The translations under genes and the position numbers were made by a program. 32,000 nt of DNA, from contig NC_008312.1 in NCBI RefSeq assembly GCF_000014265.1, positions 4,740,001 through 4,772,000 of the forward strand. The letters run 5' to 3'. Below the pieces are notes generated by a model. It saw nothing but the letters and a program-made list of their open reading frames with translations, ran no database searches and was not told where the DNA came from. Position 1 is the first letter of the stretch, and each line of letters starts with the position of its first letter. This DNA is from Trichodesmium erythraeum IMS101. GTDB taxonomy: Bacteria; Cyanobacteriota; Cyanobacteriia; Cyanobacteriales; Microcoleaceae. Shown here piece after piece: positions 6,276-32,000 of the stretch.

Positions 6276-6299
6276 TTAATAATTGATATCTTTCACCAC

Positions 6300-7339: not shown

Positions 7340-7360
7340 TATTACATTGTAGCTATTTAT

Positions 7361-11031: not shown

Positions 11032-11059
11032 TAGATATAGTGGTTATGCGTAAGTCCTG

Positions 11060-12552: not shown

Positions 12553-12781
12553 AAAGAATTGTAACTAATTTCTCATAAAAAATTAGTTATTGATAAATTT
12601 TATTGATATTGAGTTCTATTTTGCGTATAAGTCTCTTTGAAAATGTAAATATACATAAAGATATATGAAGATCTCCGGAATGTCGGTATTATATTAGTAA
12701 TATTTTGTGAGATGTAAACATACCAGCACACTTTGCTATAATTACAATGCACAATAACGTTCATAAAGGAAGGATTTGATC

Positions 12782-13627
12782 ATGCAGACCGTTGGATATT
12801 CTGAGCAGCATAGCACTAGCCACACTCAATTTAATCAAGTTGAGGAGAAGGTCGCTTTCTTCGAGAAAGAAGGTTTTGTTGGCCCATTTGATCTAGGTCA
12901 AACTGCTAGTTTAGTTGCTGTACGTGATGCCATGAGTAAAGAGATAGAAGCATCTCAAGGCCAACATATTTCTAGTCAGCCTACTCAAAGTCCGATTATG
13001 GATCGCCGGATCGCTCATACGACTTCTAAGTTAATTTATAGCCTCTCTACAGAATCCCCAATTTTGGATGATGTTGCCGATTTTATTGGCTCAAATATTC
13101 TGTTTTGGATGGCAGAAACAATTGTTAGAGAGCCAGGTCATGATGGTCATATTGTGGAAAAGACTGGTCAAATTTGGCATATAGATGTGATTAATGGGTG
13201 GATTAAAGGGGTTCATACTTCTATTGCTGTCACTGATATGACGATGAAAACTGGTTGTCTCCTTGTTATCCCCGGAACTCACAAATATGATGCTGATCTT
13301 CGTGCTTTGGAAAAAGCAGGAGAGTGTAATCTCACTGATGCTGAGAGTCTTCTCAGGTTAGCTGATAAGATGCACCCAGAAAACGCACCTCATCAAATTA
13401 AAGCTATCGAAATGAAAGCCGGTCAATACTGCTTTACAAGAGGCGGTATTTGGCATGGTGTTAGTCAAAATAATGACTCTCGAACCCGCTTTGGTGTTGT
13501 GGCTCGGTTTGCCAGACCCGATGTTGAAATAAAAAATTTCGCAGGCAATCCTATTCCTTGCATTATAGTACGGGGTGAAGACTCTCACCAACTCAATCTC
13601 CTGAAAAACATACCAGAACAACACTAG
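12782..13627 (+). CDS. PhyH-family Fe(II)/2-oxoglutarate dioxygenase
   Basis: The ORF in the track starts at TTG 12776. I prefer ATG 12782, which is preceded by AAGGAAGGA. Motifs are FFEKEGFVGPFDL, WHIDV (HxD), GGIWHGV and RTRFGVVARF. Confidence 0.75.
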   Translation: MQTVGYSEQHSTSHTQFNQVEEKVAFFEKEGFVGPFDLGQTASLVAVRDAMSKEIEASQGQHISSQPTQSPIMDRRIAHTTSKLIYSLSTESPILDDVADFIGSNILFWMAETIVREPGHDGHIVEKTGQIWHIDVINGWIKGVHTSIAVTDMTMKTGCLLVIPGTHKYDADLRALEKAGECNLTDAESLLRLADKMHPENAPHQIKAIEMKAGQYCFTRGGIWHGVSQNNDSRTRFGVVARFARPDVEIKNFAGNPIPCIIVRGEDSHQLNLLKNIPEQH

Positions 13628-15760: not shown

Positions 15761-15890
15761 AACTAAAATAATATAGATATTAGTATTTTTCAAAAGCTTA
15801 TGAATCAAAAAAATTAGCTTTTGAATTTATCTATAGCATCTTTTTTTTTGTAATAGTAAGTCCTGTAAAAAAAATAATTTAAAAATAATA

Positions 15891-16787
15891 ATGAATGAAA
15901 CGATCTCGAACAAAAATGTAACAACAGTTAGACAAGAACCTCCACTTGTTTGTTTTATTGGTACTTTAAGAGCCCTTGATTTAACCTATTCTCATTTAAT
16001 TGAAAAAGTAATTCAACCCTTGAATGCAGATTTACTTTTCTGCGTCTCTCGAATAGATGCAAACGATGAAACTCTTATTAATAGGTTTAAAGATTGTAAT
16101 ATAGTTGATGTCTATCTTTATGAAGAAGCAAAAGATAACTATCAAGATTTTTTAGACAATTTTTTCAATAAATTGAGTTCAAAAGAACAAAATAAATGGC
16201 ATGAATATTTTAAGATTGAAGGGAATTGGTTAGGAGGAATTAAAGAACGTAGAGGTTCAGGTTTTCACTTAAATTTTAACTACTTTAAGCTACTTAAAAG
16301 ACTACAAAATATAAAAAAGAATGGCTTTGAATACCAAAGATATATAATCACAAGAACAGATTTTTTCTGGATGCTAGAACATCCCTCATTAAACTTACTA
16401 GACCCTAAGTTAATATGGATACCTACAGGAGAAAATTACAATGGTTACAATGATCGCCATGCAGTTTGTAGTGAGCAAAATATTTCTCATTACTTAAATT
16501 TACTTGAATTTATGCTCAACTTTCAAGCTTTCGAATATATTTATAATAATGTTGATGAAAATAACTTAAGTCATGAAAGGCATCTGAAAAGTCATTTAGA
16601 CTACTGTGGAGTAGAAGTTTCAACCTTCAACAATATAGCTTATCTCACTGGAAATCAACAAACTTTTACTAACTGGGCTAGTGTAAAATTAAAATGTATT
16701 GACGGAGTAGAATACGCCTATAAATATGAAAATGAACTATTGAGTTGTCTTGAAAATGTGAAAAAATTTAATATTGATGGCAATTAG
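15891..16787 (+). CDS. Hypothetical protein, 298 aa (possible sugar/glycan-modifying enzyme)
   Basis: It is a long, clean, co-directional ORF inside the cluster. I recognised no family. The motifs IITRTDFFW and NGYNDRHAVC only suggest an enzyme. The sequence is extremely AT-rich. Confidence 0.5.
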   Translation: MNETISNKNVTTVRQEPPLVCFIGTLRALDLTYSHLIEKVIQPLNADLLFCVSRIDANDETLINRFKDCNIVDVYLYEEAKDNYQDFLDNFFNKLSSKEQNKWHEYFKIEGNWLGGIKERRGSGFHLNFNYFKLLKRLQNIKKNGFEYQRYIITRTDFFWMLEHPSLNLLDPKLIWIPTGENYNGYNDRHAVCSEQNISHYLNLLEFMLNFQAFEYIYNNVDENNLSHERHLKSHLDYCGVEVSTFNNIAYLTGNQQTFTNWASVKLKCIDGVEYAYKYENELLSCLENVKKFNIDGN

Positions 16788-16816
16788 AACATGATGATCA
16801 AAAATGGTAGCGAAAA

Positions 16817-17791
16817 ATGTTAACTCATAAGTCTATTAAACAACAGCTAAAAAGTGTGATTGAACAAGAAATAAGTGCAATCTCAAAGCTTTGTGAAAGC
16901 ATTGACGATTCTTGGTTAAAAGCTGTACTAAGACTTCGAGACTGCAAAGGAAAACTTGTAGTTTCTGGAATTGGTAAAAGTGGGAGCATTTCCCAAAAGA
17001 TAGCCGCTTCCTTTACATCTACGGGAATACCAGCTATTTTTATTCATCCAACTGAAGCCAGTCATGGAGATTTAGGTTTATTAGATAGTAGCGATATACT
17101 TCTTGTTCTTTCTGCTTCAGGACAGACCTCTGAACTGCTAGACATTATGCAATATGCTTCAAGGCTAAAGAGCTCAATTATTCTCATTACTAAAAACCCT
17201 AACAGTTCCTTAGCTCATTTTGCTGATATTATCTTGCAAATTCCTGATCTTCCTGAAGCTTGTATTAACGGTTTAGCCCCTACTATTTCAACAACCTGTC
17301 AACTCGTCTTAGGTGATGCCTTAGTTGTAACTCTAATGTCATTACGAGGTTTTACTTCTGAAGATTTTAAACAATTTCACCCAGGGGGTAATTTAGGAGC
17401 CCTACTTGTACCTGTAAAAAATTTAATGTATAAAGAGCATCAAATACCTCTAATTGATTTAGGAGCTTCTATCAAAGAAGCCATAATTGAAATGAACTTT
17501 AAAAGTCTAGGATGTGTTGGTGTTATCAATCATCGCAATCAATATGTGGGTATTTTCACAGACGGAGATCTACGTCGAAGTTTAGAGGCTAAAGTTTCTT
17601 TAGAAGAACCTGTCAGTCAACATATGACACCTTCACCTCTATCTATCCAATCCGACCTAATTATATCTGAACTAATTGATTTCTTTCAAAAAAATCAAAT
17701 TCCTAATGTTTTTGTAGTAGAAAACAATGAGCCTATTGGCATTGTTCATGTACATCAACTGACTTCAATTTTAGGTAGAGATGTAATATAG
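16817..17791 (+). CDS. kpsF: KpsF/GutQ/KdsD-family sugar-phosphate isomerase (SIS domain plus tandem CBS)
   Basis: GKLVVSGIGKSGSISQKIAASFTSTGIPAIFIHPTEASHGDLGLL...LVLSASGQTSEL closely parallels arabinose-5-phosphate isomerases. The C-terminal ~120 aa look like a CBS pair. Confidence 0.85.
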   Translation: MLTHKSIKQQLKSVIEQEISAISKLCESIDDSWLKAVLRLRDCKGKLVVSGIGKSGSISQKIAASFTSTGIPAIFIHPTEASHGDLGLLDSSDILLVLSASGQTSELLDIMQYASRLKSSIILITKNPNSSLAHFADIILQIPDLPEACINGLAPTISTTCQLVLGDALVVTLMSLRGFTSEDFKQFHPGGNLGALLVPVKNLMYKEHQIPLIDLGASIKEAIIEMNFKSLGCVGVINHRNQYVGIFTDGDLRRSLEAKVSLEEPVSQHMTPSPLSIQSDLIISELIDFFQKNQIPNVFVVENNEPIGIVHVHQLTSILGRDVI

Positions 17792-17983
17792 TAATGCTCA
17801 CACTACTTAATAACAATAAATACGTCTAATGTGCAATAGAAGCTAAAAGTCTTGTTACTTTGGTTTTTTTAATTAATTTGTAATTTTTTCCAATGACTGA
17901 AACTACTATCAAATAAAGGTTAATTTTAATTCACATCAGACGTAATAAATATAACTAGGTATTCCAATAAGGGATCACAACTC

Positions 17984-19504
17984 ATGAAACTACAAGAAAT
18001 TCCTTGGGTTATTGCTCAAGCTGGTGGAAAAGGAACACGCTTAAAACACTATACGTGGAATAAGCCCAAGTGTCTACTCTCAATTGCTTCTCAGCCACTT
18101 TTATATCATTTGTTTTCTCATTTTCCAGACTCTAACTTTCTCGTTATAGGGGATTACAGTTACGAAGTCTTAGACAAATATCTGCAAGTTTTTCCACCTA
18201 AAGTTTCTGTCCAGTTAATACAAGCAAAAACTAAAGGAACAATATCTGGAATTGATCAAGCCTTAAGCTATATTCCAGAAAATAATCCATTCTTATTAGT
18301 CTGGTGTGACTTACTGTTTGAAGATATTCCTGATTGTAAAATTGAAGGAAAAAACTGGATTGGTTTGAGTCGTTCTTTCCCATGTCGCTGGTCTTATGAT
18401 GATACTGGAAATTGTTTGGAGGAAGCCTCAAGCGAGCGAGGAATTGCAGGATTCTTTGTCTTCCATAATAAAACCGTTCTGAAAGATATTCCTTCATCAG
18501 GGGAATGTGTCCGTTGGTTCGCTCAAAAATCTATACAGTTTAATGAGCTTTTTCTAGATCATACCTATGAGTTCGGGACTCAGGAGCATATTGCAGAATA
18601 TCAAAAACAAAGGCCTGTTAATCGCTTTTTTAACTCTGTTGAGATCGTAGGAGATCAAGTAATCAAAAAAGCACGAATCCCAGAATTTGAGACATTAATT
18701 GAAAGGGAAATTAATTGGTATCGTAATGCTCACTCATTAGGGTTTAATCATTTGCCCACCCTAATTTCTGACCAGCCAATGACTATTTCTAGAATTACAG
18801 GAGTACATCCTTTTGAATTAGAAGTCAGCTATCAACAAAAAAGAGAAATTCTGAGTGATATTTTTCAAACTTTAAATAAGCTTCATAGTTGTGATCGAAA
18901 ACAGGCTAATGCTAAAACTTTGATCGAAGTTTACCTTCAAAAAACTTATAACCGTGTTAATAGTGTTGCTCAACTAATTCCTCATTTTGAAAAACCAACG
19001 ATTCAAGTGAATGGTTGTCTATGTCGCAATCCCTTTCATTCTCAGTATGAAAATTTAATTTCTCAATTAGTTGCCGAAATTCAAGTTGATAACTTTATGC
19101 TAATTCATGGTGATCCAACCTTTTCTAATATACTTGTTGACAATCAAGACAAAGTTTGGCTAATTGATCCAAGGGGTTATTTTGGCTCAAGTTGGCTCTA
19201 TGGTGATCCTCTGTATGACTGGGCAAAATTATACTATTCAGTTGTAGGAGACTATGATTCTTTTAATCGTCGGCGTTTCCAGCTTAAGATTATTGACCAG
19301 CAAGTTGATATTAGTATCGAAAGCAATGGTTGGCAAGATTTGGAGTCAATGTTTGTAGAAAAATTTGCCAATCAAATCTTTGTTATTAGGCTATTGCATT
19401 CCCTAATTTGGCTATCACTATCAGGCTATGTTAAAGACGATTATGATTCAATTTTAGCGAGTTTTTATAATGGATTATTTTGGTTGGAGGATGTGCTAAA
19501 ATGA
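17984..19504 (+). CDS. Bifunctional nucleotidyltransferase (N-terminal) / APH-ChoK-type kinase (C-terminal)
   Basis: The N-terminus has AQAGGKGTRLKHYTWNKPKCLL (GxGTRL nucleotidyltransferase signature). The C-terminus has LIHGDPTFSNILVDNQDKVWLIDPRG (HxDxxxxN catalytic loop and metal-binding D of the phosphotransferase fold). Confidence 0.8.
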   Translation: MKLQEIPWVIAQAGGKGTRLKHYTWNKPKCLLSIASQPLLYHLFSHFPDSNFLVIGDYSYEVLDKYLQVFPPKVSVQLIQAKTKGTISGIDQALSYIPENNPFLLVWCDLLFEDIPDCKIEGKNWIGLSRSFPCRWSYDDTGNCLEEASSERGIAGFFVFHNKTVLKDIPSSGECVRWFAQKSIQFNELFLDHTYEFGTQEHIAEYQKQRPVNRFFNSVEIVGDQVIKKARIPEFETLIEREINWYRNAHSLGFNHLPTLISDQPMTISRITGVHPFELEVSYQQKREILSDIFQTLNKLHSCDRKQANAKTLIEVYLQKTYNRVNSVAQLIPHFEKPTIQVNGCLCRNPFHSQYENLISQLVAEIQVDNFMLIHGDPTFSNILVDNQDKVWLIDPRGYFGSSWLYGDPLYDWAKLYYSVVGDYDSFNRRRFQLKIIDQQVDISIESNGWQDLESMFVEKFANQIFVIRLLHSLIWLSLSGYVKDDYDSILASFYNGLFWLEDVLK

Positions 19505-19875
19505 CAGAATTAGTATTAAGTTGTTTACCGAAAACTTGGTTGATTGACATTGATGGAGTTATTCTTAAGCATAATGGCCATCAACAAAATGACGAAGTTT
19601 TGCTCCCTGGAGTTGAAGAATTTTGGCAACAGATTTCAAAACAAGATTTTGTAATTTTACTAACTGCTCGTACAGAAGATCTGCGTGATACTACCCTGTT
19701 CTTATTAGATCAACATAATCTTCGTTACAACATTGCAATTTTTGGTGTACCAACTGGAGAAAGAATTTGTATCAATGACAAAAAACCGTCAGGCCTTCTT
19801 ACTAGTTATGCTATAAATTTATTAAGAGATGGAGGATTAAATTCTCTTAGAATAATAAATAATCCTAATATGTAA
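19501..19875 (+). CDS. Small capless HAD-superfamily phosphatase-like protein (124 aa)
   Basis: The preferred start, ATG 19501, overlaps the upstream stop (ATGA). Motifs are WLIDIDGVILKH (DxDG motif I), ILLTART (motif II) and INDKKP (Lys motif). Confidence 0.6.
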   Translation: MTELVLSCLPKTWLIDIDGVILKHNGHQQNDEVLLPGVEEFWQQISKQDFVILLTARTEDLRDTTLFLLDQHNLRYNIAIFGVPTGERICINDKKPSGLLTSYAINLLRDGGLNSLRIINNPNM

Positions 19876-20033
19876 ATTTTCAAAGCATATAGTCTAAAGT
19901 TTTTAGTTACTAGGCTTTTAAATGTGTTACTCAATAGTAACAAAAGAACAGACAGAAGGTATTTCTATTTCTCACGACATGATGATAAAATAACTTATTG
20001 AGTCACCCATTCATACACAAAGAAAACAGTTTT

Positions 20034-20792
20034 ATGGAAAACCAAAATCAAACTGAACAAACATCAGAAGCAAATAGTCCAATTCCTTTAGAGAGAAGAA
20101 CCAAAGCACAAAGTGAAATTTATGATGCTTTTGAGAAATTTATTTTTAGTAACGAAACGAAAATATTAGCCAAGCTAATAGCTAGAACCTTAATTTTTGA
20201 ACAAATTATTAATGTACCTGGTGATATTGTGGAAGCTGGAGTTTACAGAGGAAGTGGGATGTTGACTTGGCTGAAACTTAAAAAAATTCTCGCACCTAAC
20301 GCATTAAAGAAAGTTATTGGTTTTGACTATTTTGACACAGAATCTTTGCTTAATTCATTATCTGGACAGGATCAAATTTCCATGAAGGATTTATTTGAGA
20401 CAAGGGGTTATAAACATGAAGAAGGAGCAGAACAATTTGTTCACGATTTAATTGCTAATGCAGCATTTGATAAGAATAGCTACGAGCTTGTTCAAGGTGA
20501 TATTTCAAAAGTTGCTCCAGATTTTGTAGCGAAAAGACCTGGCTTCAAGATATCTTGCCTATATCTGGATTTAGACTTACATTATCCAACCTACCATGCG
20601 TTGACGGCATTTTGGGATCGAGTATCTGTTGGAGGTATTGTTGTATTTGATGAGTATGCCTATCATCAATGGTCAGAAGCGCAAGGTGCAGATCAGTTTT
20701 TTGAAAAGAAGAATATTCAAATTAAAGCTCTACATTATCCTTGTCCCACAGCTTATGTTATTAAGTCATCTAGTACAAAAAACTACACATGA
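20034..20792 (+). CDS. TylF/MycF-type class I SAM-dependent O-methyltransferase
   Basis: The track ORF starts at TTG 19998; the first ATG is at 20034. Motifs are GDIVEAGVYRGSGMLTW (SAM-binding loop) and LDLDLHYPTYHALTAFWDRVSVGGIVVFDEY. Confidence 0.7.
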   Translation: MENQNQTEQTSEANSPIPLERRTKAQSEIYDAFEKFIFSNETKILAKLIARTLIFEQIINVPGDIVEAGVYRGSGMLTWLKLKKILAPNALKKVIGFDYFDTESLLNSLSGQDQISMKDLFETRGYKHEEGAEQFVHDLIANAAFDKNSYELVQGDISKVAPDFVAKRPGFKISCLYLDLDLHYPTYHALTAFWDRVSVGGIVVFDEYAYHQWSEAQGADQFFEKKNIQIKALHYPCPTAYVIKSSSTKNYT

Positions 20793-21421
20793 ATCAGAAC
20801 CAACAACTTGTAAATTATTTTAAGGAACTAACTGCCCAAAGCTATCAGTTACTAAATTCTTTAGGGTTATCTTCAACTCCTATTCCTCTAAAAATATTGC
20901 TGACAGATTTGTCAGCTAGGCTTGTTGAGTTGAAGGAAAGTATGATTATTAACTACCAAAAATTAAATCGCCCTCAATATAATTGGTGTAAAACAGATAC
21001 CAACTTAGGGGTTGGGCTCAATTCTATTGGTATGTTATCAGATCGACTTTCCATCTTAATCATTAAGGAATGGTGTTTACTCAATAAAACTAATTCAAAT
21101 CTGAAGAAGGCTAATGATTTGTATCAAACTCAGACAATGGACATTATTTATGCTTTGGCAAGTGCCAAGCCTGGTAGTTCATCAATGAATACAAAAATAA
21201 CAAGCCGTAAATCTAGGGTAATTGCAACTTCATGGGAAGAGGCTTTTTACGGTTTGTTTTCAACCAATATTGTGAATTGGGAATCTCAAGAAATTTTATA
21301 TATTAAGGACATTCAAAGTTTGCCCTGTGAAGAACTAAGAAATTACATTGACTGGTTTTCATTTGGGAACATTCAAAGAAATGAATATATTCAATACTGT
21401 GAAGAACTTTATTGGTATTAA
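20789..21421 (+). CDS. Hypothetical protein, 210 aa (possibly DUF4254-like)
   Basis: The start overlaps the methyltransferase stop (ATGA), implying co-translation. LSDRLSILIIKEW reminds me of DUF4254 proteins found in LPS/glycan loci, but this is unverified. Confidence 0.5.
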   Translation: MNQNQQLVNYFKELTAQSYQLLNSLGLSSTPIPLKILLTDLSARLVELKESMIINYQKLNRPQYNWCKTDTNLGVGLNSIGMLSDRLSILIIKEWCLLNKTNSNLKKANDLYQTQTMDIIYALASAKPGSSSMNTKITSRKSRVIATSWEEAFYGLFSTNIVNWESQEILYIKDIQSLPCEELRNYIDWFSFGNIQRNEYIQYCEELYWY

Positions 21422-21457
21422 GTTTTATTTAAATAGAGTAATTTAGAAGTAATTTAG

Positions 21458-22408
21458 ATGAGTAAAATACCTCAAACTCAGGAAAATAAACATTTAGAGT
21501 CAAATGTATATAATAACTTTAATGTTTATCCCCTCGCTGGACGTATCGGAGCAGAAATAGTTGGACTTGATCTTAAGCAGACTCTTAGCGATGAAACAAT
21601 TCATGATATTCGCCAAGTATTAATCAAGTATAAGGTAATTTTCTTTAGACAGCAAGAGCTTACTGAAATAAGTCAGGTTGCCTTTGCCCGTCAATTTGGG
21701 ATTCTTACCACTGCACATCCACTACTTTCATCTTTACCTGGTCATCCAGAGATCTTTGACTTCGATTATGGACGTATGGACAACCGAACTAATCAATGGC
21801 ATACGGATGTGACATTTATTGATCGTCCTCCTTTTGCCTCAATTTTGCGTGCAGTTGAAATACCTGCCGTTGGAGGAGATACAATCTGGGCAAATACTGT
21901 GACAGCTTATCAAGATATGCCTATACCACTGCGTAACTTTGCTAACCAGCTTTGGGCGGTTCATAGCAATACATATAATGACTATCTAGGGGCAACTGCA
22001 AATATATCGAAAAAACGACAAGAACTAGGTAAAATTTTCACTTCAATTGAATACCAGACATTACATCCAGTAGTTCAGGTTGTTCCTGATTCGGGTGAAA
22101 GAGGGCTGTTTATTGGTGCTTTTGTCCGCCAACTTCAAGGTTTTTCGATAAATGAATCAATGCAGATACTGAAGATATTGCAATCCTATATAATACGTCC
22201 GGAAAATACTGTACGTTGGCATTGGGAACAAGGCGATATTGCTTTCTGGGATAATCGAGTAACGCAACATTATGGGATCAATGATTTTGGTTCCCAGCCT
22301 CGTCGTGTTCAACGGGTAACAATTGCGGGAAACTTACCTATTAGCCTTGAAGGTATAGAAAGCAAGTCAGTTAAGGGGGATGCCTCTGCCTATAACAGAC
22401 TGAAATAG
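21458..22408 (+). CDS. TauD/TfdA-family Fe(II)/2-oxoglutarate dioxygenase
   Basis: Motifs are NQWHTDVTFIDRPPFASILRAVEIPAVGGDTIWAN (HxD plus the typical TauD context) and FWDNRVTQHYGINDF (distal His). Confidence 0.85.
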   Translation: MSKIPQTQENKHLESNVYNNFNVYPLAGRIGAEIVGLDLKQTLSDETIHDIRQVLIKYKVIFFRQQELTEISQVAFARQFGILTTAHPLLSSLPGHPEIFDFDYGRMDNRTNQWHTDVTFIDRPPFASILRAVEIPAVGGDTIWANTVTAYQDMPIPLRNFANQLWAVHSNTYNDYLGATANISKKRQELGKIFTSIEYQTLHPVVQVVPDSGERGLFIGAFVRQLQGFSINESMQILKILQSYIIRPENTVRWHWEQGDIAFWDNRVTQHYGINDFGSQPRRVQRVTIAGNLPISLEGIESKSVKGDASAYNRLK

Positions 22409-22943: not shown

Positions 22944-23993
22944 GGCTTTGTTGCATGAATGTTGCGATCGCAGATGACTCCCTGGAGAGATGCAGGTGTA
23001 CTTGATAACTTTCGGGTTTACCATTCTGTATCATGGGGTTCAGGATAGCGCATTGAATGAATAACTCCACTGCTTGATATCAAATGATCGTCTTCGTAAC
23101 TTCCCACTAAATAAAACTTTGAACCTAAACATAGTGGTTTCAGATAGAGAGCGTCTATGGTATCCACTTTCATGCTTCCATTTTTGCCGTCCTATTTGAC
23201 GAACTCCTCTGAGGTTCTCATCTCTGGGGGCGGGTAGGGCTTTACAGTTGCCATGCTGCCTAATCACAGCATTTTTACGCCTCTTTGGTGAGCTGTTTCA
23301 TAGCACTTGTATTTGTCATCAGCCCCATCACCTGAAACTTGGGCTATTTCACCTTCTACTCCATCTAATAGGTTAGAAAATACTTGGTCGTCACTCACAT
23401 CATTTGTGACAACTGCTGTGACAATCTCTCCGGTGGCCTCATTCACACTCTAGTAATTTACGTCATGTCCTACGTTTACCTACACCATGAATCCTGGTTT
23501 TCCATTCCCCTTCACCGTAGACTTTGACCCCTGTAGAATCAACTACCAAATGCATCCCTTCTGTCCTTGGTCTCACTGGTCTCCCGATACTTAGTTTTCT
23601 GACCCTACGGCATACAGTGCTATGGTCTGGTACAGGTAAATCTAATCTCTAAAAATCAAATATAGATTCTACAAATCCTTCTGTCTGTCGCCGCGCCCTG
23701 CAAACAAACTACTGAGAGTGACCATTAGTTCAATAGCTACATCGCTATAGGTATTCGGTGCTCCCTGACGCCCAGTTTGATGTTGGTTTACCCACTGTTC
23801 TATCACTTCATAACTTAGCCAAAATGTCAGCCTCCCTCTCTGCTTTAAGGAGGCATCATCCATACGACCAGTTGCTAACCCGGTACTTGGACTTGGACTT
23901 AGACTTGGACTTACTCATAAGGAGAGTTAATGCAGGATTTTGTGCTACCCACTGTTATTTTTACCATCTTTCCTTGCTTTGTGCAACAAAGTA
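22944..23993 (-). mobile_element. IS903-group (IS5 family) element, copy B, decayed
   Basis: One end is GGCTTTGTTGCATGAA at 22944 and the other is TGCAACAAAG at 23991. The minus ORFs are 23669-23863 (SLKQRGRLTFWLSYEVIEQWV), 23264-23446 and 23040-23267 (RRSLSETTMFRFK). There are many frame breaks, and I found no target duplication. Confidence 0.8.
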
Positions 23994-24154: not shown

Positions 24155-24337
24155 ATGACACACAATACCTCAGTAAATACTCCACATCTAGTCAAAACCC
24201 TGAGACAGCGTTTAGGACTATCTCAGACAAAATTTGCTAAACACTTAGGTATATCATTCCAGACGGCAAATAATAGGGAAAATGGACATAGTCGCTCATC
24301 TCCAATAGTGATAAAATCAATCTACTCACTAAATTAA
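24155..24337 (+). CDS. XRE/Cro-type helix-turn-helix protein, probably frameshifted at its 3' end
   Basis: LRQRLGLSQTKFAKHLGISFQTANNRENG is a classic XRE HTH. The expected C-terminal part (KVLGKDKTDLLKRF) is readable in another frame at about 24326-24380. Confidence 0.6.
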   Translation: MTHNTSVNTPHLVKTLRQRLGLSQTKFAKHLGISFQTANNRENGHSRSSPIVIKSIYSLN

Positions 24338-24453
24338 GGTATTAGGAAAAGATAAAACAGATTTATTAAAGAGGTTTTTGTCTAGAAAAAAATCTGACAT
24401 TTTGTTCTGTAAAAAATCAAATTAACTACTTATAAATTAAAATATTTGTAATC

Positions 24454-27400
24454 ATGCTATCCTCAATATTTCAAGCTTGCATTCCTAAAGCCGAAATTCA
24501 ATCAGGTAATTTATCAGCAGAAATATTTGCAGCTAAACTAATATCAGTTGTAGAAGGAAAAGCTCCTTATGTTTATCAAAATGCTGATGCTTTTTTTGCC
24601 AATACTTATCCCACTGACGGGCTAAAAAGTCTGATTAAAGAAGTATTTTCTCGTCTCAATAAGTCAGCAGCAGGGGCACCTGTGATTAGATTAGAAACAA
24701 GTTTTGGTGGTGGTAAAACTCACGATGAAATAGCTATTTGGCATATTTGTCAAGCAGGTAGAAAAATACAAGGTTTAGAACGTTTTACTGATTTAAATTT
24801 AATTCCTAATTCTCCTATTCAAGTAGCAGCAGTAGATGGTCGTGACTTAGACCCAGAGAATGGTGTTTTTCATCAAGATACAGGAATTACAACTTATACT
24901 TTATGGGGAGAAATTGCCTATCAAATAGGAGGAATTGCCGGTTATGAACTTTTGTCTGGTAGTGATAAAAAAGGGGGTAGTCCGGGTACTTCTGTTCTTG
25001 AAAATTTGATTAATGGCAACCCCACAGTAATTATATTAGATGAAATTGCCCATTGTTTACGAACTGCTAAAGCAAAGATTGTTGGTGATACTAATTTAGC
25101 AGAACAAGTGGTGGCTTTTGTATTTACTTTAATGAACTTAGCAGGTGCTAGTGATAATATTGTATTTGTTTACTCTTTAGCTTCTACATCCGACACTTTT
25201 TCTCAGGAAACTACAGAATTCAAAGAAGAAATATCCAAAGAATTAAAAGAAGTAAGATCTGCTTCGGCACGACAAGAATTAATTATTAGTCCTTCTACAG
25301 ATGTGGAAGTTTATAATATTGTCAAACAACGATTATTTGATAGTGTAAGTGCTGAAGTTGCTGAAAAAATCTCCAAACAATATCTTGAATCATATCGCGC
25401 TTGTAAACTCAATTTACCAGATGGATGTAAAGATGCTGACTATGCAAGTGCAATTACTCAAAGTTACCCATTCCATCCAGAGTTATTTAACCTATTGACG
25501 AAAAAAATTGCCTCTATCCCAGAGTTTCAAAAAACTAGAGGTGCGTTACGTTTATTTGCTCAGGTTGTCAAATATCTATGGCAAAACCCCCCAGAACATA
25601 CTCTCATGATACATACTCACCACATACCAGTGGGAATGGATGACAAGGTAACTAATGACTTGACCTCCAAACTACAACGTTCTCAGATGATGCCTCCTAT
25701 TAGGGCAGATATTTACAATACCGATGGCAGAAAAGCTTATGCTCAGGTTCAAGATGAAAACTGGATAGCAGCAGGTAAACCAACTTTTACAACTTGGACT
25801 GCTAGAACAATTTTTCTTCATTCTTTGACTCGAGGTACTTCTTCTGGTATAAATAAATCGGAATTAAATTTATCTCTCTTAACACCAGGAATTGAAATTG
25901 GATTTGTGGAACGTGCTTTGGAAAAGTTAACTTCAGTTGCTTGGTATTTAGACTATGACCCTATAACATCTAGAAGTAGATTTAAAGAAGAGCCTTCAAT
26001 TAATAAAATTGTGACTGAGGAAAAAGATATGGTAGGGATAATTGAAGCTAAAGACTATTTACGAGAGCGACGGGATAGTATTTTTGCTAAAAATATATTT
26101 AACAATTTAATTTTAGCTCCAGCTAGTCCTTCTGATATTGATGATAAACCGGATGAAATTGCTCTATGTTTAATTGATTTTGATGAAGCAACGGTAAAAT
26201 CTACTACAGATAATCCGCCGGAAATTGTGGATAAAATGTTTAATAATACGGGTGAATCAGGAAAATTCAGAGTTTATCGTAACCGTTTATTATTCTTACT
26301 TGCTAATGAAATTGAATTACAAAAAACTGTCGATAATGCTAGGGAATATAAGGCTATTCAAAACATTTTAAAAAGTCAAAATCGTCTGCAAGACTTATCA
26401 GAAACTCAGAAGAAACAACTGAAGGAAAGAAGCGGAGCAAAAGACTTAGATGTGAGAGTTTCTTTAACTAATACTTACCGTCATTTATTCTATCCGAGTA
26501 ATGACCCGAAAAAAGCTCCTAATGGTTTAATGCACTATACTTTACCTACTCAAGATTCTAGTACAATTAAAGGTAAAAGTAATCAACAAGATATAATTGT
26601 TAAGGCTCTCAAAGACTGTCAAAAATTTCGTTCGGAAGAGGAAGCTAAACCTTATGCACCTGCTTTTATTTTACAGAAAGTTTGGTCTAGTGGGTTAGAC
26701 TCAATATCTACAAAAGGTATTAAGGACACATTTGCTAAAGACTTAAGCTTAAAATTTCTGATGGGTGGAGAAATTTCATTGTTACGAGATACTATTCTCA
26801 AGGGGGTACAAGAGGGGCAGTGGGATATGAAAGTAGGGGAGCAGTTGTTTATCAAAACAGAGCTTGGTTTACCCAGTTTAACTAATATCAAAATCGAATT
26901 TTCTGACAATATTGTATTGTACCGTCGGGGAATATTGGAACCTCCTGCACCAAAAATAATTGAACTTAATGCTCAGGTGATGCAGAGTCGGGAAGCTGCT
27001 AAACCTGTAGGAGTCAGATGGAAAGCTAAGGGTGCTTTGACTGTTACTCTCTACCAAGATAATGATGTCATTCCTGGTAATTTTAAGCCAAGTGATGAGT
27101 ATAAAACTACTATTACTGAGAATACTGTTTTCAAGGTTATAGCTGACTATGGTAATGATGAAACTGAGTCAAAAGAATATGCTGTTACTCTTGCTCCGGC
27201 GAGAAGTGTTAAGTCTCCCACGGGTACTTATCGAGTTCCTGGTAAGAGTGATAGTGAGGGTACTCAAGGAAATGTCTTTGACTTTCAACCCCCCAATATT
27301 AACCTAGAGGGAACGGTTAATGCTGTGTTCACTAAATTTGTTGATGAATGTAGCGATCGCAAAGTCGCAACTATTGAGTCTTTAGAATTAACGGTAGATA

Positions 27401-27726
27401 AAACAGTAGACTATCGTAAAATAGGTACAGCTTTACCATTACTTAGCAGGTTTAACATTTCCATAGACCAAACAGTAACTATTCAAGCACCAGACCAGTT
27501 TGTGCGGCTTGAATATCAAGGGAAAATACGGGGGTTTCAAAGTTTTTTCACTACTATTAGTGGTTTACTGAATGTACCAAACGCTCAAGCAGATGTTAGT
27601 ATCAAAATTACTATTGAGTTTACTACACCTATTACACCAGGAGGTCACGAACTCAATGCTATCAAACAAGCCTTAACCCGTAACCCGGTTGAGCACATTA
27701 GCTTAAATGCAAAGGTGACATATTAA
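24454..27726 (+). CDS. DUF499-type P-loop ATPase (1090 aa), defence-system component
   Basis: ETSFGGGKTH (GGGKT encoded at 24706-24720) and VIILDEIAH (Walker B), in a >1000-aa protein, are the pattern I associate with DUF499/COG1483 ATPases. The C-terminal ~270 aa look beta-rich. Confidence 0.75.
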   Translation: MLSSIFQACIPKAEIQSGNLSAEIFAAKLISVVEGKAPYVYQNADAFFANTYPTDGLKSLIKEVFSRLNKSAAGAPVIRLETSFGGGKTHDEIAIWHICQAGRKIQGLERFTDLNLIPNSPIQVAAVDGRDLDPENGVFHQDTGITTYTLWGEIAYQIGGIAGYELLSGSDKKGGSPGTSVLENLINGNPTVIILDEIAHCLRTAKAKIVGDTNLAEQVVAFVFTLMNLAGASDNIVFVYSLASTSDTFSQETTEFKEEISKELKEVRSASARQELIISPSTDVEVYNIVKQRLFDSVSAEVAEKISKQYLESYRACKLNLPDGCKDADYASAITQSYPFHPELFNLLTKKIASIPEFQKTRGALRLFAQVVKYLWQNPPEHTLMIHTHHIPVGMDDKVTNDLTSKLQRSQMMPPIRADIYNTDGRKAYAQVQDENWIAAGKPTFTTWTARTIFLHSLTRGTSSGINKSELNLSLLTPGIEIGFVERALEKLTSVAWYLDYDPITSRSRFKEEPSINKIVTEEKDMVGIIEAKDYLRERRDSIFAKNIFNNLILAPASPSDIDDKPDEIALCLIDFDEATVKSTTDNPPEIVDKMFNNTGESGKFRVYRNRLLFLLANEIELQKTVDNAREYKAIQNILKSQNRLQDLSETQKKQLKERSGAKDLDVRVSLTNTYRHLFYPSNDPKKAPNGLMHYTLPTQDSSTIKGKSNQQDIIVKALKDCQKFRSEEEAKPYAPAFILQKVWSSGLDSISTKGIKDTFAKDLSLKFLMGGEISLLRDTILKGVQEGQWDMKVGEQLFIKTELGLPSLTNIKIEFSDNIVLYRRGILEPPAPKIIELNAQVMQSREAAKPVGVRWKAKGALTVTLYQDNDVIPGNFKPSDEYKTTITENTVFKVIADYGNDETESKEYAVTLAPARSVKSPTGTYRVPGKSDSEGTQGNVFDFQPPNINLEGTVNAVFTKFVDECSDRKVATIESLELTVDKTVDYRKIGTALPLLSRFNISIDQTVTIQAPDQFVRLEYQGKIRGFQSFFTTISGLLNVPNAQADVSIKITIEFTTPITPGGHELNAIKQALTRNPVEHISLNAKVTY

Positions 27727-28157
27727 TGCAAGAGTTTCAGTTAAGAGTTGTGCCATTAGATAATAATAATTTGGCATTGGAATTATATCAATGTTCTTAT
27801 AAAAAAGCAGGGGAGAAAAAACGACCTTCTGCTAAGAGAATTGCGAAGATAAAAGGTAATGCTTTAATATTAGCAAGACAGGCAATTTATCAAACTCTTA
27901 AAGTTAATAAATATGACCCAAAAACTCTTTCTTATAAACGGCAATCTCCTTATATTTTGTCTGAAGAGTCTGGAGTAAGTTTAGCAATTTTATTTCAGGC
28001 GTTACAACCTTTATCAAAACTAGAAAGAATGTCTAATATTACTGAGGGAGTAATGGAAATGAGTGATGAAGAAGCTCATTATTGGTTTGGTAAAATTAAT
28101 AATGGTAAACGCAGTCCAGCTTTGAAAGCGATGAGAGTTTTATTAGGAGACCTGTAA
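27726..28157 (+). CDS. Small conserved-context protein, 143 aa, unknown function
   Basis: The ATG shares its A with the upstream TAA (TAATG), so the two genes are coupled. The ORF is clean, with a basic N-terminal half and a C-terminal MSDEEAHYWFGKI...ALKAMRVLL. Confidence 0.6.
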   Translation: MQEFQLRVVPLDNNNLALELYQCSYKKAGEKKRPSAKRIAKIKGNALILARQAIYQTLKVNKYDPKTLSYKRQSPYILSEESGVSLAILFQALQPLSKLERMSNITEGVMEMSDEEAHYWFGKINNGKRSPALKAMRVLLGDL

Positions 28158-28221
28158 ATAAATATATATATCGCGGCCATATTTTCACTAATATCTATCC
28201 ATTATTTATAGGAAAAAATAA

Positions 28222-31032
28222 ATGAATAATTCCCAACGTCCGACTGTTTTTATTGAAAAAATTATGCCTGTGAAATTATTAAATCAACAGGTTTATTATG
28301 AACATGGAGGTAATCCTTTTAAGGGGTTGCATCGCTGGTATTCTCGTAAACCTTTATCGTTTTCAAGAGCTTCGGTTTTAGCTTCTTTATTGCCTGATGA
28401 TATTTCTGTAGAAGAGTTTGAGTATTTATTAGGGTTGAAAAAGCGGAGCAATTCTATTCAAAAAAGTGAACAGTATAAGGATGATACTAAGCTTTATAAA
28501 ACTCCTCCTGATGAAACAAGAATTAAGCAGGTACATGACTACTGTGAGAAAACCTGGGGGACCAGAACACCTACTATTTTGGATGCGTTCGGTGGTGGTG
28601 GGAGTATTCCTTTTGAAGCAGCGCGGTATGGGTTGAATGTTTTGGCATCAGATTTGAATCCGGTGGCAGTGGTGACAATGAAAGCAGCGATGGAATATCC
28701 TTTGAAATTCGGACCTGACTTGCAGCAGGATATTGATAAGTGGGTGCAGTGGGTAGGGGATGAGGCAGAGAAACGGTTGGCTGAGTTTTTCCCGTCGTTG
28801 CCAGGGGAAAGGGTGCAGAATTATTTGTGGGCCCATACGGTGGTTTGTCCCAGTTGTCAGTCGGTTGTGCCTTTGAGTCCGAATTGGTGGTTATATAAAC
28901 GCCCGGAAAAGCAGAATTTACATAAATGGTGTGCGGTGAAACCTATTCCTAATCCTGAAGGGAAGCGGGTTGATTTTGAGTTGATAAAAGGAAGTAAGGG
29001 AAAAGGTACGACTATTAAGACTGATGAGGGTGAGTTCGATCCGAGTGACTACAATACTATTAGTAGGGGTGTGGGTAAATGTTTGAATTGTGGTAATGTG
29101 ATTGAGGATGGTGTAATTAAATCTCAGGCACGGTCAGGAAAGCTTGGGCATCAAATGTATGCAGTGGCATTTAAAAAAGGTAAGGGAAGTTTAGAGTTTA
29201 GATTACCTCAAAATGTTGACTTTGATGGATTGGGTAAAACTGATTATTATTTGAATAGTAGTTTTGAGGAATTTCAATTAAGTGGTTTATTACCAGAAAT
29301 CGAAATTAACTCTGGTGAGAAAACAGACGAACTTATTAGATATGGAATTAACCAATGGTCAAAATTATTTAATCCCCGTCAACTTCTAACCCTTGTCACT
29401 TATGTCGAAATTATTAACGATGTTAAGTTACAATTACAAGCAGAATATGAACCCGATAAAGTAGAGGCGATCGCTACTTATTTGGCATTGATATTGGATA
29501 GATGCGTTGACATAAACAGCAGACTTACTCACCTAAACCCAGCAGGAAGTTGGGGAATTCAAATGTCATCTGCCCAACATTCTCTTAATTTAATGTGGAA
29601 CTACGTTGAAGCATCTGGTAGTGCAAAGCTTTGGTCAGTATATTCTCAAACTGTTCAAAGCGGATATCCTAAAATTTGCCAACTCCTCAACGCCAAACCT
29701 CTACCCATTGACACCCAACAACACAACAAAACCATCCAAATAGACTCCACATCAGCAGACACCCTCTACCACATCCCCAATAACTCAGTAGATGCCATCA
29801 TCACCGACCCGCCCTACTACGCCACCATTCAATACGCCGAACTATCGGACTTTTTCTACGTCTGGCAGCGCCGAGTCTTAGGCGATATCTTCCCCGACCT
29901 CTACTTAACCGAACTCACCGACAAAGACAGAGAAGCAGTTGCCAACCCCTCCCGCTTCCGCAACATGGGAACATCCCCCGATGAACTTGCAAACCAAGAC
30001 TACGAAGCAAAAATGGCACTCGCCTTTGCCGAACATTACCGAGTCTTGCGCGACGACGGCGTAATGACGGTACAATTTAACCACAAAGAGTCCGGCGCGT
30101 GGGATGTCTTAGCAAAATCTCTCATTGACGCTGGTTTTGAAATCACCGCATCTTGGGCAGTCAGTACTGAAAACCCCCAAAACCTCCATCAAGCTAAGAA
30201 AAATTCTGTTTCCAGCACCGTCTTACTTGTCTGTCGCAAACGTGACCCCAACGCCCCTCAAGCATGGTGGGATGACCTGCAACCAGAAGTTGCCAACCAA
30301 GTAGAGGAACGCGCCCCCGACTTTGAAAAAAATGACATCACGGGAATTGACCTATATCTCAGCGCATTCGGCCCAGCATTAAACGTATTCAGTCGTTCCT
30401 ATCCCATATTAGACAACAGTGGAGTAGAAGTCCGCCCCGAAGTCGCCTTTGCTGAAGCTAGAAAAGCGATCGCTAACTACCGCTTCCAGAAACTTGTACA
30501 AACAGACACAGCGGGCTTTGATATTTTGACCCAATGGTATTTATTAGCTTGGGATGCTTTCAGTGCCAGGGAGTTCCCCTTTGATGAAGCCAGACAACTT
30601 GCCCTAGCCATAGGAGGTTTCAACGTCAACGACCTGGTTAAAGTTCACAAATTATTAGACTCAACGAGTGGCACTTGCAAATTATTAACACCCCGACAAC
30701 GACTGAAAAAACGAGCATTTTCGGTCACTCCACAAGATTTTTCTAGTCAATATTTAGTAGATGACATTCATGCTATTATTGCTATTTATCAAGAAGAGGA
30801 AAATGTAGAAGTAGTCCGTCGGTTTATGGAAAAAACAGGATTATTAAGCAATGAAATGTTTATGCAAACTATTGAAGTAGCATTAAAAGTAATTCCCGAT
30901 AAAATAGAAGAGGAACAAACCTTGATGAATTTGTGTTTAATGATGGATGAAATTAAAGATAATGTCAGTACCCAAGGGAAACAATTAGAATTATTTGAAC
31001 AGCAGTTAAGCTTAGATTTTGGAGATGTTTAA
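28222..31032 (+). CDS. DUF1156-type Zn-ribbon DNA amino-methyltransferase (936 aa)
   Basis: The N-terminus FIEKIMPVKLLN...GLHRWYSRKPLSFSRASVLASLL is DUF1156-like. Other motifs are DAFGGGGSIPFEAARYG (motif I), CPSC...CLNCG (Zn ribbon) and ITDPPYY (motif IV, 29806-29820). Confidence 0.8.
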   Translation: MNNSQRPTVFIEKIMPVKLLNQQVYYEHGGNPFKGLHRWYSRKPLSFSRASVLASLLPDDISVEEFEYLLGLKKRSNSIQKSEQYKDDTKLYKTPPDETRIKQVHDYCEKTWGTRTPTILDAFGGGGSIPFEAARYGLNVLASDLNPVAVVTMKAAMEYPLKFGPDLQQDIDKWVQWVGDEAEKRLAEFFPSLPGERVQNYLWAHTVVCPSCQSVVPLSPNWWLYKRPEKQNLHKWCAVKPIPNPEGKRVDFELIKGSKGKGTTIKTDEGEFDPSDYNTISRGVGKCLNCGNVIEDGVIKSQARSGKLGHQMYAVAFKKGKGSLEFRLPQNVDFDGLGKTDYYLNSSFEEFQLSGLLPEIEINSGEKTDELIRYGINQWSKLFNPRQLLTLVTYVEIINDVKLQLQAEYEPDKVEAIATYLALILDRCVDINSRLTHLNPAGSWGIQMSSAQHSLNLMWNYVEASGSAKLWSVYSQTVQSGYPKICQLLNAKPLPIDTQQHNKTIQIDSTSADTLYHIPNNSVDAIITDPPYYATIQYAELSDFFYVWQRRVLGDIFPDLYLTELTDKDREAVANPSRFRNMGTSPDELANQDYEAKMALAFAEHYRVLRDDGVMTVQFNHKESGAWDVLAKSLIDAGFEITASWAVSTENPQNLHQAKKNSVSSTVLLVCRKRDPNAPQAWWDDLQPEVANQVEERAPDFEKNDITGIDLYLSAFGPALNVFSRSYPILDNSGVEVRPEVAFAEARKAIANYRFQKLVQTDTAGFDILTQWYLLAWDAFSAREFPFDEARQLALAIGGFNVNDLVKVHKLLDSTSGTCKLLTPRQRLKKRAFSVTPQDFSSQYLVDDIHAIIAIYQEEENVEVVRRFMEKTGLLSNEMFMQTIEVALKVIPDKIEEEQTLMNLCLMMDEIKDNVSTQGKQLELFEQQLSLDFGDV

Positions 31033-31047
31033 ATAGCAATTTATAGT

Positions 31048-31082
31048 TAAAACTTCTACATTCAAAACTAATAGAAGTTTTA
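31048..31082 (+). promoter_or_regulatory. Intergenic hairpin between the methyltransferase and PLD-domain genes
   Basis: TAAAACTTCTA / TAGAAGTTTTA form an 11-bp stem with a 13-nt loop and no T-tract after it. ATAACTGA occurs twice further downstream (about 31133 and 31153). Confidence 0.4.
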
Positions 31083-31164
31083 TCAGTAAAATTGCAGACA
31101 TAAAAGCCAACATAGACATTAAATTAATTCCCATAACTGATAATTGATAACTAATAACTGAAAA

Positions 31165-32000
31165 ATGCCTAACTTCCGTTCCCATTATTGGTCTATTAGC
31201 TACTCCAGCAATGAAAATAATCCTATTGCTGACTTCTATATCCCTGCCTTAGAATGTGCTATTCAATATGATAGAAAATCTGGTTTTTTTAGTAGTGCTA
31301 TTCTCAGTAAAGTAACCAGAGGATTAGGAGCAATGCTTCAAAATGAAGGTAAAATACGTCTGATTATGGGATGTCAATTTAACCCTCAAGATTTAGAAAC
31401 CATTCAAAAAGGTTATGAGTTGAGAAAAGCTCTAACCCTTCGTCTTGATGCTGACTTAAAACCACCAGAAAATTTTGCCCAGCTCAAACATTTTGAAATT
31501 CTTAGTTGGTTAATTTCTACAGGTTATTTAGATATTAAAATTGCCATTCCTCTTAAAAATAACGGACTGCCAGAAGCAAGCGATCAACAATTAGACCCCC
31601 AACATATTTTCCATGAAAAAGTTGGAATTTTTACGGATAAAAATGGCGACCAAATAGCCTTTAGTGGTTCTAATAATGAATCATTAGGAGGATGGGAACA
31701 AAACGTAGAATCGTTTCATGTTTATTGTGCTTGGGAAGGAGAAAGAGACTTTGATAGAGTACAAGAAGAAGTATATAGATTTGAGAAACTTTGGCATAAT
31801 TTAGCTCCTAATGTGAAAGTATTTAATATTCCAGAAGCCGTTGCAGAAAAACTTTTACGTTATACTCCCTCTACTAAACCCACTTGGAATGAAAAAGTTG
31901 AATTTGACACAAGACCATTACCATCAAAACTATCATATTTTTCTGACAACAAATCCGAGGAAAAAGAGGAAAGTAAAAACATATTTTCTACAGATAATAT
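31165..32000 (+). CDS. PLD/HKD-nuclease-domain protein, 5' partial (continues beyond window; a helicase body is expected downstream)
   Basis: It is not in the ORF track because there is no stop in the window. My translation from ATG 31165 is open to 31998: MPNFRSHYWSISYSS...YDRKSGFFSSAIL...IFHEKVGIFTDKNGDQIAFSGSNNESLGGW, which contains an HxK...D...GSxN phospholipase-D motif. Confidence 0.7.
   Translation, partial: MPNFRSHYWSISYSSNENNPIADFYIPALECAIQYDRKSGFFSSAILSKVTRGLGAMLQNEGKIRLIMGCQFNPQDLETIQKGYELRKALTLRLDADLKPPENFAQLKHFEILSWLISTGYLDIKIAIPLKNNGLPEASDQQLDPQHIFHEKVGIFTDKNGDQIAFSGSNNESLGGWEQNVESFHVYCAWEGERDFDRVQEEVYRFEKLWHNLAPNVKVFNIPEAVAEKLLRYTPSTKPTWNEKVEFDTRPLPSKLSYFSDNKSEEKEESKNIFSTDN

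Follow-up and report, generated by a model that had tools for sequence, protein, structure and literature searches.

A probable Type-2 BREX-related anti-phage locus carrying a DUF7680 small protein in Trichodesmium erythraeum IMS101

The DNA analyzed here is a stretch of 32,000 nucleotides (nt) from Trichodesmium erythraeum IMS101 (contig NC_008312.1, positions 4,740,001 to 4,772,000, forward strand), called the window throughout. Its downstream end carries five co-directional genes centered on a DUF499-type ATPase, and on the basis of their sequences we consider it likely that four of them form a restriction-modification-like anti-phage system of the DUF499-centered class related to BREX (bacteriophage exclusion), with a Type-2 architecture and a lineage-specific XRE regulator in front. 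Open reading frames (ORFs) of the window were scanned and translated directly, families were assigned with the hidden Markov models (HMMs) of Pfam, PADLOC, and NCBIfam, and folds were analyzed via AlphaFold2 (AF2) models and Foldseek. The locus and its upstream boundary comprise the following features:

23040..23863, minus strand: insertion sequence (IS) remnant, a fragmented IS5-type transposase in three short ORFs; upstream boundary of the locus, outside the system
24155..24337, plus strand: XRE-type helix-turn-helix (HTH) gene, 60 amino acids (aa); Pfam HTH_3, E = 2.9e-9
24454..27726, plus strand: DUF499-type AAA+ ATPase, 1090 aa; Pfam DUF499, PADLOC HmaC, NCBIfam DUF499_antiphage
27726..28157, plus strand: DUF7680 small protein, 143 aa; Pfam DUF7680; one-base overlap with the ATPase stop codon (TAATG)
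28222..31032, plus strand: DUF1156-type N6-adenine DNA methyltransferase, 936 aa; Pfam DUF1156 and N6_N4_Mtase, PADLOC HmaB
31165..32000, plus strand: fifth ORF, the HKD (phospholipase D [PLD]-type) nuclease N terminus of an HKD-Swi2/Snf2 helicase; no stop codon before the window end; 278 codons visible

Gaps of at most 116 nt lie between the first four genes, and none of them holds an additional gene. The gene positions, motifs, and TAATG coupling given in a preliminary description of this DNA were confirmed by the ORF scan and translation, and both its domain calls (XRE, DUF499, DUF1156, and PLD/HKD) and the restriction-modification or BREX-like logic that it proposed were borne out by the HMM family matches. 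The upstream IS remnant that it reported is also real, since a transposase piece (ORF 23669-23863, minus strand; Pfam DDE_Tnp_1_5, E = 2.8e-11) lies among the minus-strand fragments.

When one genome per species was scanned, 80 cyanobacterial loci were obtained; the five window proteins were mapped onto them, and 41 of these loci had enough flanking DNA for the gene order to be judged. In 31 of the 41, the ATPase, DUF7680, methylase, and HKD-helicase genes were all full length, shared one strand, and followed each other in this order; the other 10 loci were incomplete. The conserved unit is these four genes, and their order is conserved across cyanobacteria. The motifs of the active sites (Walker A and B, methylase motifs I and IV, the Zn-ribbon cysteines, HKD, DEAH, and GLGKT) were invariant or nearly so across 47 to 55 orthologues. 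The closest locus, L001 from a Trichodesmium metagenome-assembled genome (MAG), encodes a methylase that is 90% identical and a DUF7680 protein that is 99% identical to those of the window.

The five-gene operon of the preliminary description held for these four genes but not for the XRE gene. XRE homologues upstream of the ATPase were found only in L001 (86% identity), Okeania L084 (79%), and Allocoleopsis L083 (44%), and none was found outside the lineage of the window in the 39 loci where the DNA upstream of a full ATPase extends for 1 kb or more. The XRE gene was therefore rejected as a core component and is a lineage-specific accessory, probably a regulator. The window protein and its Trichodesmium/Okeania relatives read NRENGH where the Allocoleopsis protein reads NRWERS; the tryptophan and the residues following it differ, suggesting that the HTH may be degenerating in the Trichodesmium/Okeania lineage.

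The junction between the ATPase and DUF7680 genes is tight (median, 27 nt; 2 nt or less in 20 of 45 loci), which, together with the overlap seen in the window, suggests co-translation of the two proteins and their association in a complex. Foreign genes occupy the other two junctions, which are mostly wide, with medians of 1355 nt (DUF7680-methylase) and 1041 nt (methylase-helicase). These two downstream intergenic gaps are insertion hot spots, whereas the ATPase-DUF7680 junction stays tight. With gaps of 64 nt and 132 nt, respectively, and no inserted cargo, the window copy is among the most compact. The cargo found in the gaps of relatives L002 to L077 includes PIN, ParE, and Zeta toxin-antitoxin genes, Uma2 endonucleases, and an IrrE peptidase, as well as a ThiF/E2/multi-ubiquitin set, an AAA+ ATPase with an S8 protease, and an IS200 transposase. 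A conserved sixth gene in the methylase-helicase gap was considered and rejected, as the recurrent ORFs (Uma2, PIN, ParE, Zeta, etc.) vary by locus. The two hot spots could steer searches for new defense cargo.

The ATPase was recognized by the Pfam DUF499 (E = 1.5e-33), PADLOC HmaC (8.5e-103), and NCBIfam DUF499_antiphage (7.6e-65; 219 bits, with a cut-off of 1200) models, and its N terminus retrieved AAA+ ATPases (Cdc48, Vps4, and TRIP13) in the Foldseek search. The motifs and domains located in it are as follows (AF2 model confidence is given as the predicted local distance difference test [pLDDT] score):

24706..24723, plus strand: Walker A motif GGGKTH, aa 85-90; invariant in 47/47 orthologues
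25027..25044, plus strand: Walker B motif VIILDE, aa 192-197; D and E invariant in 47/47 orthologues
26821..27186, plus strand: all-beta (FnIII/Ig-like) region, aa ~790-911; only strands in the AF2 model, pLDDT 70-87
27295..27720, plus strand: C-terminal alpha/beta domain, aa 948-1089, from the AF2 secondary-structure pattern; RRM label unconfirmed by the fold search

The all-beta region retrieved tandem FnIII domains (2ha1), the FnIII module of CbhA (3pe9), and the Ig-like folds of SoxY. No part of the protein is less conserved than the disordered linker (aa 901-947; as the most variable stretch, aa 901-960) between the all-beta and alpha/beta domains. The DUF499 ATPase is predicted to be an HmaC/BrxC-like scaffold or sensor. 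A Protein Data Bank (PDB) sequence search with the ATPase and the methyltransferase returned no match.

The 143-aa protein, whose size and coupling were correct in the preliminary description, is not the anonymous ORF presented there; it is a very highly conserved, full-length member of Pfam family DUF7680 (E = 1.7e-45), although no match was found among the PADLOC or NCBIfam models. DUF7680 is the best-conserved component of the system, with a median identity to the window protein of 74% across orthologues (ATPase, 62%; methylase, 68%), and its cyanobacterial homologues are 71 to 98% identical to the window protein. In the AF2 model (pLDDT 89.7), four strands are predicted to pack on five to six helices, and a fold search of the PDB gave no match at E <= 0.001. 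An exhaustive profile search retrieved 401 representative clusters, some of which are ASCH-DUF7680 fusions. The DUF7680 type also occurs outside cyanobacteria, because a Sinorhizobium plasmid locus carries the same layout of DUF499, a 159-aa DUF7680, DUF1156, and HKD-helicase genes.

In the canonical system described below, the corresponding position is occupied by DUF3780. The DUF3780 model of Pfam did not match the window protein. The hhalign comparison of DUF7680 with DUF3780, made with diverse alignments, gave a weak alignment that was collinear from end to end (score, 22.3; P of about 0.006 to 0.009), with a maximum score of 18.9 in 40 column shuffles and a score of 10.5 for the reversed control. 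It pairs MS-EEA-YWF-K with LRPEERWWLYSK. Since DUF3780 shares the position after the ATPase, a four-strand/five-helix fold, and ASCH fusions (PMC12839542), a remote homology between the two families is plausible but unproven.

The methyltransferase matched Pfam DUF1156 (E = 1.1e-8) and N6_N4_Mtase, PADLOC HmaB (2.1e-78), and NCBIfam DUF1156_antiphage (8.6e-78; 262 bits, with a cut-off of 1000), and the PADLOC PglX/PglXI model also matched it (2.9e-17). A recognition region that contains a Zn-ribbon is nested between motif I (aa 123) and motif IV (aa 529):

28588..28605, plus strand: motif I FGGGGS (S-adenosylmethionine binding), aa 123-128; kept in 53/55 orthologues, FAGGGS being the commonest form
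28846..29091, plus strand: Zn-ribbon CPSC (aa 209-212) ... CLNC (aa 287-290); four cysteines kept in 53 to 55 of 55 orthologues
28852..28941, plus strand: variable recognition patch 1, aa 211-240; 49% identity to L001 (Trichodesmium MAG)
29482..29751, plus strand: variable recognition patch 2, aa 421-510; 35 to 47% identity to L001
29806..29820, plus strand: motif IV DPPYY (catalytic), aa 529-533; DPPY invariant in 55/55 orthologues

Everywhere outside patches 1 and 2, the window methylase is 97 to 100% (overall ~99%) identical to its L001 counterpart, and across the orthologues the variation clusters between motifs I and IV. Patch 1 is 100% identical to the corresponding sequences of Microcoleus L003 and L010, whose catalytic cores are 85 to 87% identical, while the median identity of patch 2 across orthologues is 43% versus 83% for the catalytic core. 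The recognition region is a mosaic of exchangeable alleles shuffled among lineages, as expected for a sequence-specific self-marking enzyme that is pressed to change its specificity, and the mosaic patches mark where the target specificity is likely set.

Some orthologous methylases are interrupted or fused. The methylase ORF of L058:191-4318 (1375 aa) contains an intein (Intein_splicing, Hint, and LAGLIDADG) at about aa 552-981, directly after DPPY. The methylase ORF of L064:9992-13672 (1226 aa) carries an in-frame IS200-like Y1 transposase domain (aa 633-717), and no further core gene of the system was detected at that locus. In L054:8750-12106, one ORF of 1118 aa matches the methylase together with the C-terminal end of the ATPase, and DUF7680 is missing, which looks like a deletion joining two genes.

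The fifth ORF runs off the window at codon 278, and the body of the helicase lies beyond that point. The nuclease/helicase body foreseen for this ORF was thus found in the window for the HKD part, whereas the helicase domains were found in orthologues only (57 to 75% identity). The HKD motif is located as follows:

31612..31677, plus strand: HKD motif HEKVGIFTD-x7-FSGSNN, aa 150-171; H, K, G, S, and N fully or almost fully conserved across 52 orthologues

The visible 278 aa gave a subthreshold match to Pfam PLDc_2 (E = 1.2e-3; 19 bits versus a cut-off of 27), and their best PADLOC match was the N-terminal region of PbeA, an HKD-helicase (5e-70). The orthologues are at least 1000 aa long in 52 loci, typically 1050 to 1100 aa, and the three that were scanned contain the N-terminal HKD and the SNF2-related, ResIII, and Helicase_C domains, RapA being the nearest solved relative. 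The orthologues matched the NCBIfam model for "phospholipase D-like anti-phage protein" (4e-114; 383 bits, with a cut-off of 1100) and also PADLOC PLD_Helicase, BrxHI/BrxHII (1e-74 to 1e-80), and DrmD. The HmaA model ranked below the PbeA, PLD_Helicase, and BrxH models; it aligned (3e-64 to 3e-66) to the helicase core only, in two or three stretches ending at model position ~642 of 1176. All 52 orthologues have GLGKT and DEAH, and in 50 of the 52 each chain carries a single HKD-type motif. In PLD-type nucleases such as Nuc and BfiI, which have a lone HKD motif per chain, two chains form one active site, and the one HKD motif per chain seen here suggests the same pairing.

DUF499-centered loci have been divided into three BREX-related (BR) types, for which a restriction-modification-like action was proposed (PMC12839542, Nucleic Acids Research 2026). 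Type-1 BR corresponds to Hma and has a helicase with a C-terminal PD-(D/E)xK nuclease, while Type-3 BR has PglZ and an inactive STAND protein (PMC12839542). Type-2 BR, known from 1120 taxa, combines an N-terminal HKD-helicase (no TUDOR) with a standalone DUF3780, which is in the core locus of 98% of the taxa; in 53%, its DUF499-type ATPase, a STAND/ORC-like AAA+ protein, carries one or more FnIII-like beta-sandwiches followed by an RRM/ferredoxin-like domain, and its methylase is an N6-methyltransferase with a nested target recognition domain (PMC12839542). In the respects tested, the window locus conforms to Type-2 BR except for the family of the small protein. The two share the order and orientation of the four genes, the DUF499 AAA+ ATPase, a small alpha+beta protein directly after it, the DUF1156 N6-methyltransferase with its nested recognition region and Zn finger, the N-terminal HKD on a RapA-like Swi2/Snf2 helicase, and, in some loci, an upstream XRE-type regulator. 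The ATPase tail of the window likewise appears to have a beta-sandwich part, with one or more putative FnIII units, and an alpha/beta part that may be an RRM domain. However, the small protein is DUF7680 in the window and DUF3780 in the canonical systems.

The canonical system of Acinetobacter baumannii pJBA13_1 encodes XRE-IrrE, DUF499, DUF3780, DUF1156, and PLD-like proteins in the same order as in the window, and NCBI annotates the four canonical core genes (DUF499/DUF3780/DUF1156/PLD-like) as anti-phage with equivalog HMMs. The cut-offs of the NCBIfam equivalogs NF042962-4 were not reached by the window system, its three large proteins scoring 18 to 35% of the cut-off bits, which places it in a divergent branch of the annotated system rather than in the canonical form. 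The ATPase is ~24% identical to its canonical (DUF3780-type) counterpart, and the helicase type of the window is ~150 aa longer than the canonical one and has a more divergent PLD domain. The pJBA13_1 system (L081, 178-18109) lies on a conjugative plasmid directly downstream of Tn7-like genes (a Mu transposase C-terminal domain protein, an AAA ATPase, TnsD, and TnsE), suggesting that it travels as transposon cargo. DUF3780 identity is 74 to 89% across E. coli, Bacillus, and Desulfo- lineages.

Hma (HmaA-HmaB-HmaC), named by PADLOC in 2021 (PMC8565338), was the label given in the preliminary description, and part of it stands: the ATPase and methylase are homologous to HmaC and HmaB, the HmaA model covers the Snf2 helicase core of the orthologues, and foreign defense genes are inserted inside the operon in both systems. 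However, HmaA has a C-terminal PD-(D/E)xK (NOV_C) nickase and no HKD, whereas the window type has an N-terminal HKD, which is the defining mark of its sister class, Type-2 BR, and Hma consists of three genes without a small DUF3780/DUF7680 protein, whereas the window locus has DUF7680 as a fourth gene. Hma in the strict sense was therefore rejected. The HmaA helicase-nuclease was reported to protect against T4, with the nickase required, in a study of the Halomonas system (PMC11232893).

The ATPase, methylase, and helicase are homologues of BrxC, PglXI/BrxXI, and BrxHII of Type-3 BREX (PMC12839542), which further comprises PglZ, BrxA, and BrxF; the nested-recognition methylase and the RapA-like helicase are common to both, but an HKD nuclease stands in place of PglZ. 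No PglZ, BrxA, or BrxB/F gene was found in the window operon or its flank as far as position 32000, and with no PglZ ORF in or beside the operon, BREX of any type was rejected. DISARM, whose PLD protein is the separate DrmC, was rejected too, there being no DUF1998 (DrmB) or DrmA helicase gene, and the DrmD matches involve only the Snf2 core common to both. The preliminary description was right in noting that PglZ, DUF1998, and HsdS/HsdR are absent. PbeABCD, also known as CxC-ABC-ATPase-DndE (PMC6459918; re-annotated in PMC10853773), resembles the window locus in PbeA, which joins an HKD nuclease to an SF2 helicase, but PbeABCD usually lies near dndCDEA, and the modification enzyme of the window is a methylase. 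Neither the CxC ABC ATPase (PbeC), the DndE-like PbeD, nor dnd phosphorothioation genes were found among the window ORFs, and membership in PbeABCD was rejected, the PbeA-like HKD module alone being shared.

For MANTIS, presented in a September 2026 preprint (bioRxiv 10.64898/2026.09.23.753747, "Dual ATPase-activated DNA hemimethylation and cleavage"), the chances that it belongs to the same class as the window system are about even. Going by term counts alone, the preprint uses "BREX-related" and mentions DUF499 (2 times), PLD (6), HKD (1), helicase (12), BrxC (11), and hemimethylation (10), whereas the counts for DUF3780, DUF1156, DUF7680, Hma, and SNF2 are zero. The terms present would suit a system made of two ATPases, a methylase, and a PLD nuclease. 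To judge from these counts, it may give the mechanism of a related system.

What is supported directly (the identity of each component, the conservation of the active sites, the ATPase-DUF7680 coupling, and the modular recognition alleles) suggests how a Type-2 BR-like system could operate here. The DUF1156 methylase would N6-methylate adenine in a specific motif of the host DNA, read by its nested Zn-ribbon recognition region. The DUF499 ATPase and DUF7680, made together by translational coupling, would form a DNA-scanning or licensing complex; its sensor and "reader" parts might be DUF7680 and the variable domains at the C terminus of the ATPase, namely, the beta-sandwich and the alpha/beta domain. 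On unmarked DNA, the HKD-Swi2/Snf2 protein would be licensed and translocate using ATP, and two of its chains would pair their single HKD motifs into one nuclease site and nick or cut the invader.

Several points weigh against this reading. The experimental precedent comes from the sister class (HmaA) rather than from the DUF7680-type clade. All three large proteins score far under the equivalog cut-offs, the small protein is not DUF3780 according to Pfam, with the profile comparison suggestive at most, and the helicase body lies outside the window and is known through orthologues. The whole ATPase gave a poor AF2 model (mean pLDDT, 60.5), and its C-terminal domain is no more than a putative RRM. 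In addition, cleavage is not certain, because a replication block with no visible degradation of DNA has been reported for BREX and PbeABCD (PMC6459918). Finally, the closest relatives are decayed, and the activity of the window copy is thus not guaranteed: L001 (6484-16168) has lost the ATPase N terminus, gained a PIN-like gene, and has its HKD-helicase split into ORFs of 227 aa and 627 aa, and Okeania L084 (9703-23258), a 91%-identical locus, retains only the HTH, ATPase, and DUF7680 genes, having lost the methylase and helicase.

One alternative, which we regard as unlikely, is that the system acts as BREX does, marking self DNA and blocking the replication of an unmodified invader without degrading it, so that the HKD domain merely nicks or is structural or a back-up. 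The homology of the three large proteins to Type-3 BREX components (PMC12839542) and the BrxHI/BrxHII matches of the orthologues are consistent with such action, as is PbeABCD, which shares the HKD-helicase module through PbeA and stopped viral replication while DNA cleavage was not detected (PMC6459918); the HmaA nuclease, too, is a nickase (PMC11232893). However, the invariance of the HKD catalytic residues in 52 orthologues argues for an active phosphodiesterase, and DNA cleavage by such HKD-helicases has been argued for in PMC10853773 and PMC12839542. The title of the MANTIS preprint also names cleavage, which counts here if MANTIS belongs to this class. The decay of the two closest relatives, together with the 10 incomplete loci among the 41 assessable ones, gives weight to another alternative, that the window ORFs look intact but belong to a decaying or inactive remnant of a system no longer working in the Trichodesmium genome. 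The locus also abuts a dead IS, its fifth gene is visible to codon 278 only, and its XRE protein has NRENGH in place of the Allocoleopsis NRWERS. We nevertheless think a remnant improbable, somewhat more so than BREX-like action, as there are four complete ORFs of normal length with every catalytic motif, the fifth ORF is open beyond the stop point of the L001 copy, and the window copy is among the most compact and cargo-free.

Least probable of all, in our judgment very much so, is an abortive-infection or addiction module in which infection or loss of methylation would make the helicase-nuclease attack the host DNA and kill the cell, the main role being population-level defense or stabilization of a mobile element. 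The system is often borne on plasmids or transposons (Tn7-like cargo in Acinetobacter; cyanobacterial plasmids), relatives are packed with toxin-antitoxin cargo, and suicidal back-up effectors have been proposed for some BR systems (PMC12839542). However, neither HEPN nor any other suicide domain is present in the window copy, a methylase that marks self DNA and switches its recognition alleles is a better match for self/non-self discrimination, and there are decayed copies that keep the nuclease region and miss other parts without obvious lethality. The restriction-modification-like system of Type-2 BR architecture is thus the reading that we favor.

Within this favored reading, a further and tentative proposal concerns the small protein. 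Possibly, although we would not expect it, the DUF7680-type loci of cyanobacteria and some rhizobia represent a distinct, undescribed BREX-related subtype in which the place of DUF3780 beside the ATPase was taken by a small protein that is unrelated to it or related only very remotely; DUF7680 could then read the methylation state and gate both ATPases and, if so, would be a new kind of epigenetic-mark reader. The searchable literature contained no paper mentioning the DUF7680-type subclade, and a search of the supplements of PMC12839542 by accession, cyanobacterial genus, and DUF7680 did not find a classification of this clade.

The preliminary description had treated the locus as a system with no known mechanism, which does not hold: the neighborhood was described in 2013, 2020, 2021, and 2026, anti-phage HMMs exist at NCBI for the four canonical genes, and HmaA has been tested against T4. 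The class of the system, its likely logic, and its role in defense are already in the literature, and nothing in it is overturned here; the DUF7680 small subunit and the divergence from the NCBI equivalogs are mildly novel. The locus is a well-preserved, compact BREX-related copy from a marine nitrogen fixer, where phage defense has been little studied.

A scan for promoters and terminators gave counts at background level, and an Rfam scan of the window matched nothing. The IS remnant has a GC content of 0.43, versus about 0.35 nearby. Upstream of it, a co-directional nondefense cluster (9656-22408, plus strand) encodes a GT61 glycosyltransferase, a PhyH dioxygenase, an ABC exporter, DUF7796, a sugar isomerase with SIS and CBS domains, an NTP-transferase/kinase fusion, a TylF-type O-methyltransferase, and a TauD dioxygenase, and looks like an operon for the biosynthesis and export of a modified sugar or small molecule. 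Because this cluster is unrelated to defense, the defense locus is a stand-alone insertion outside any visible defense island. The coding density of positions 1-9600 is very low, with ORFs of at most 196 aa on either strand and a GC content of 0.26 to 0.42; this region may be pseudogenized or noncoding DNA of the kind reported for Trichodesmium.

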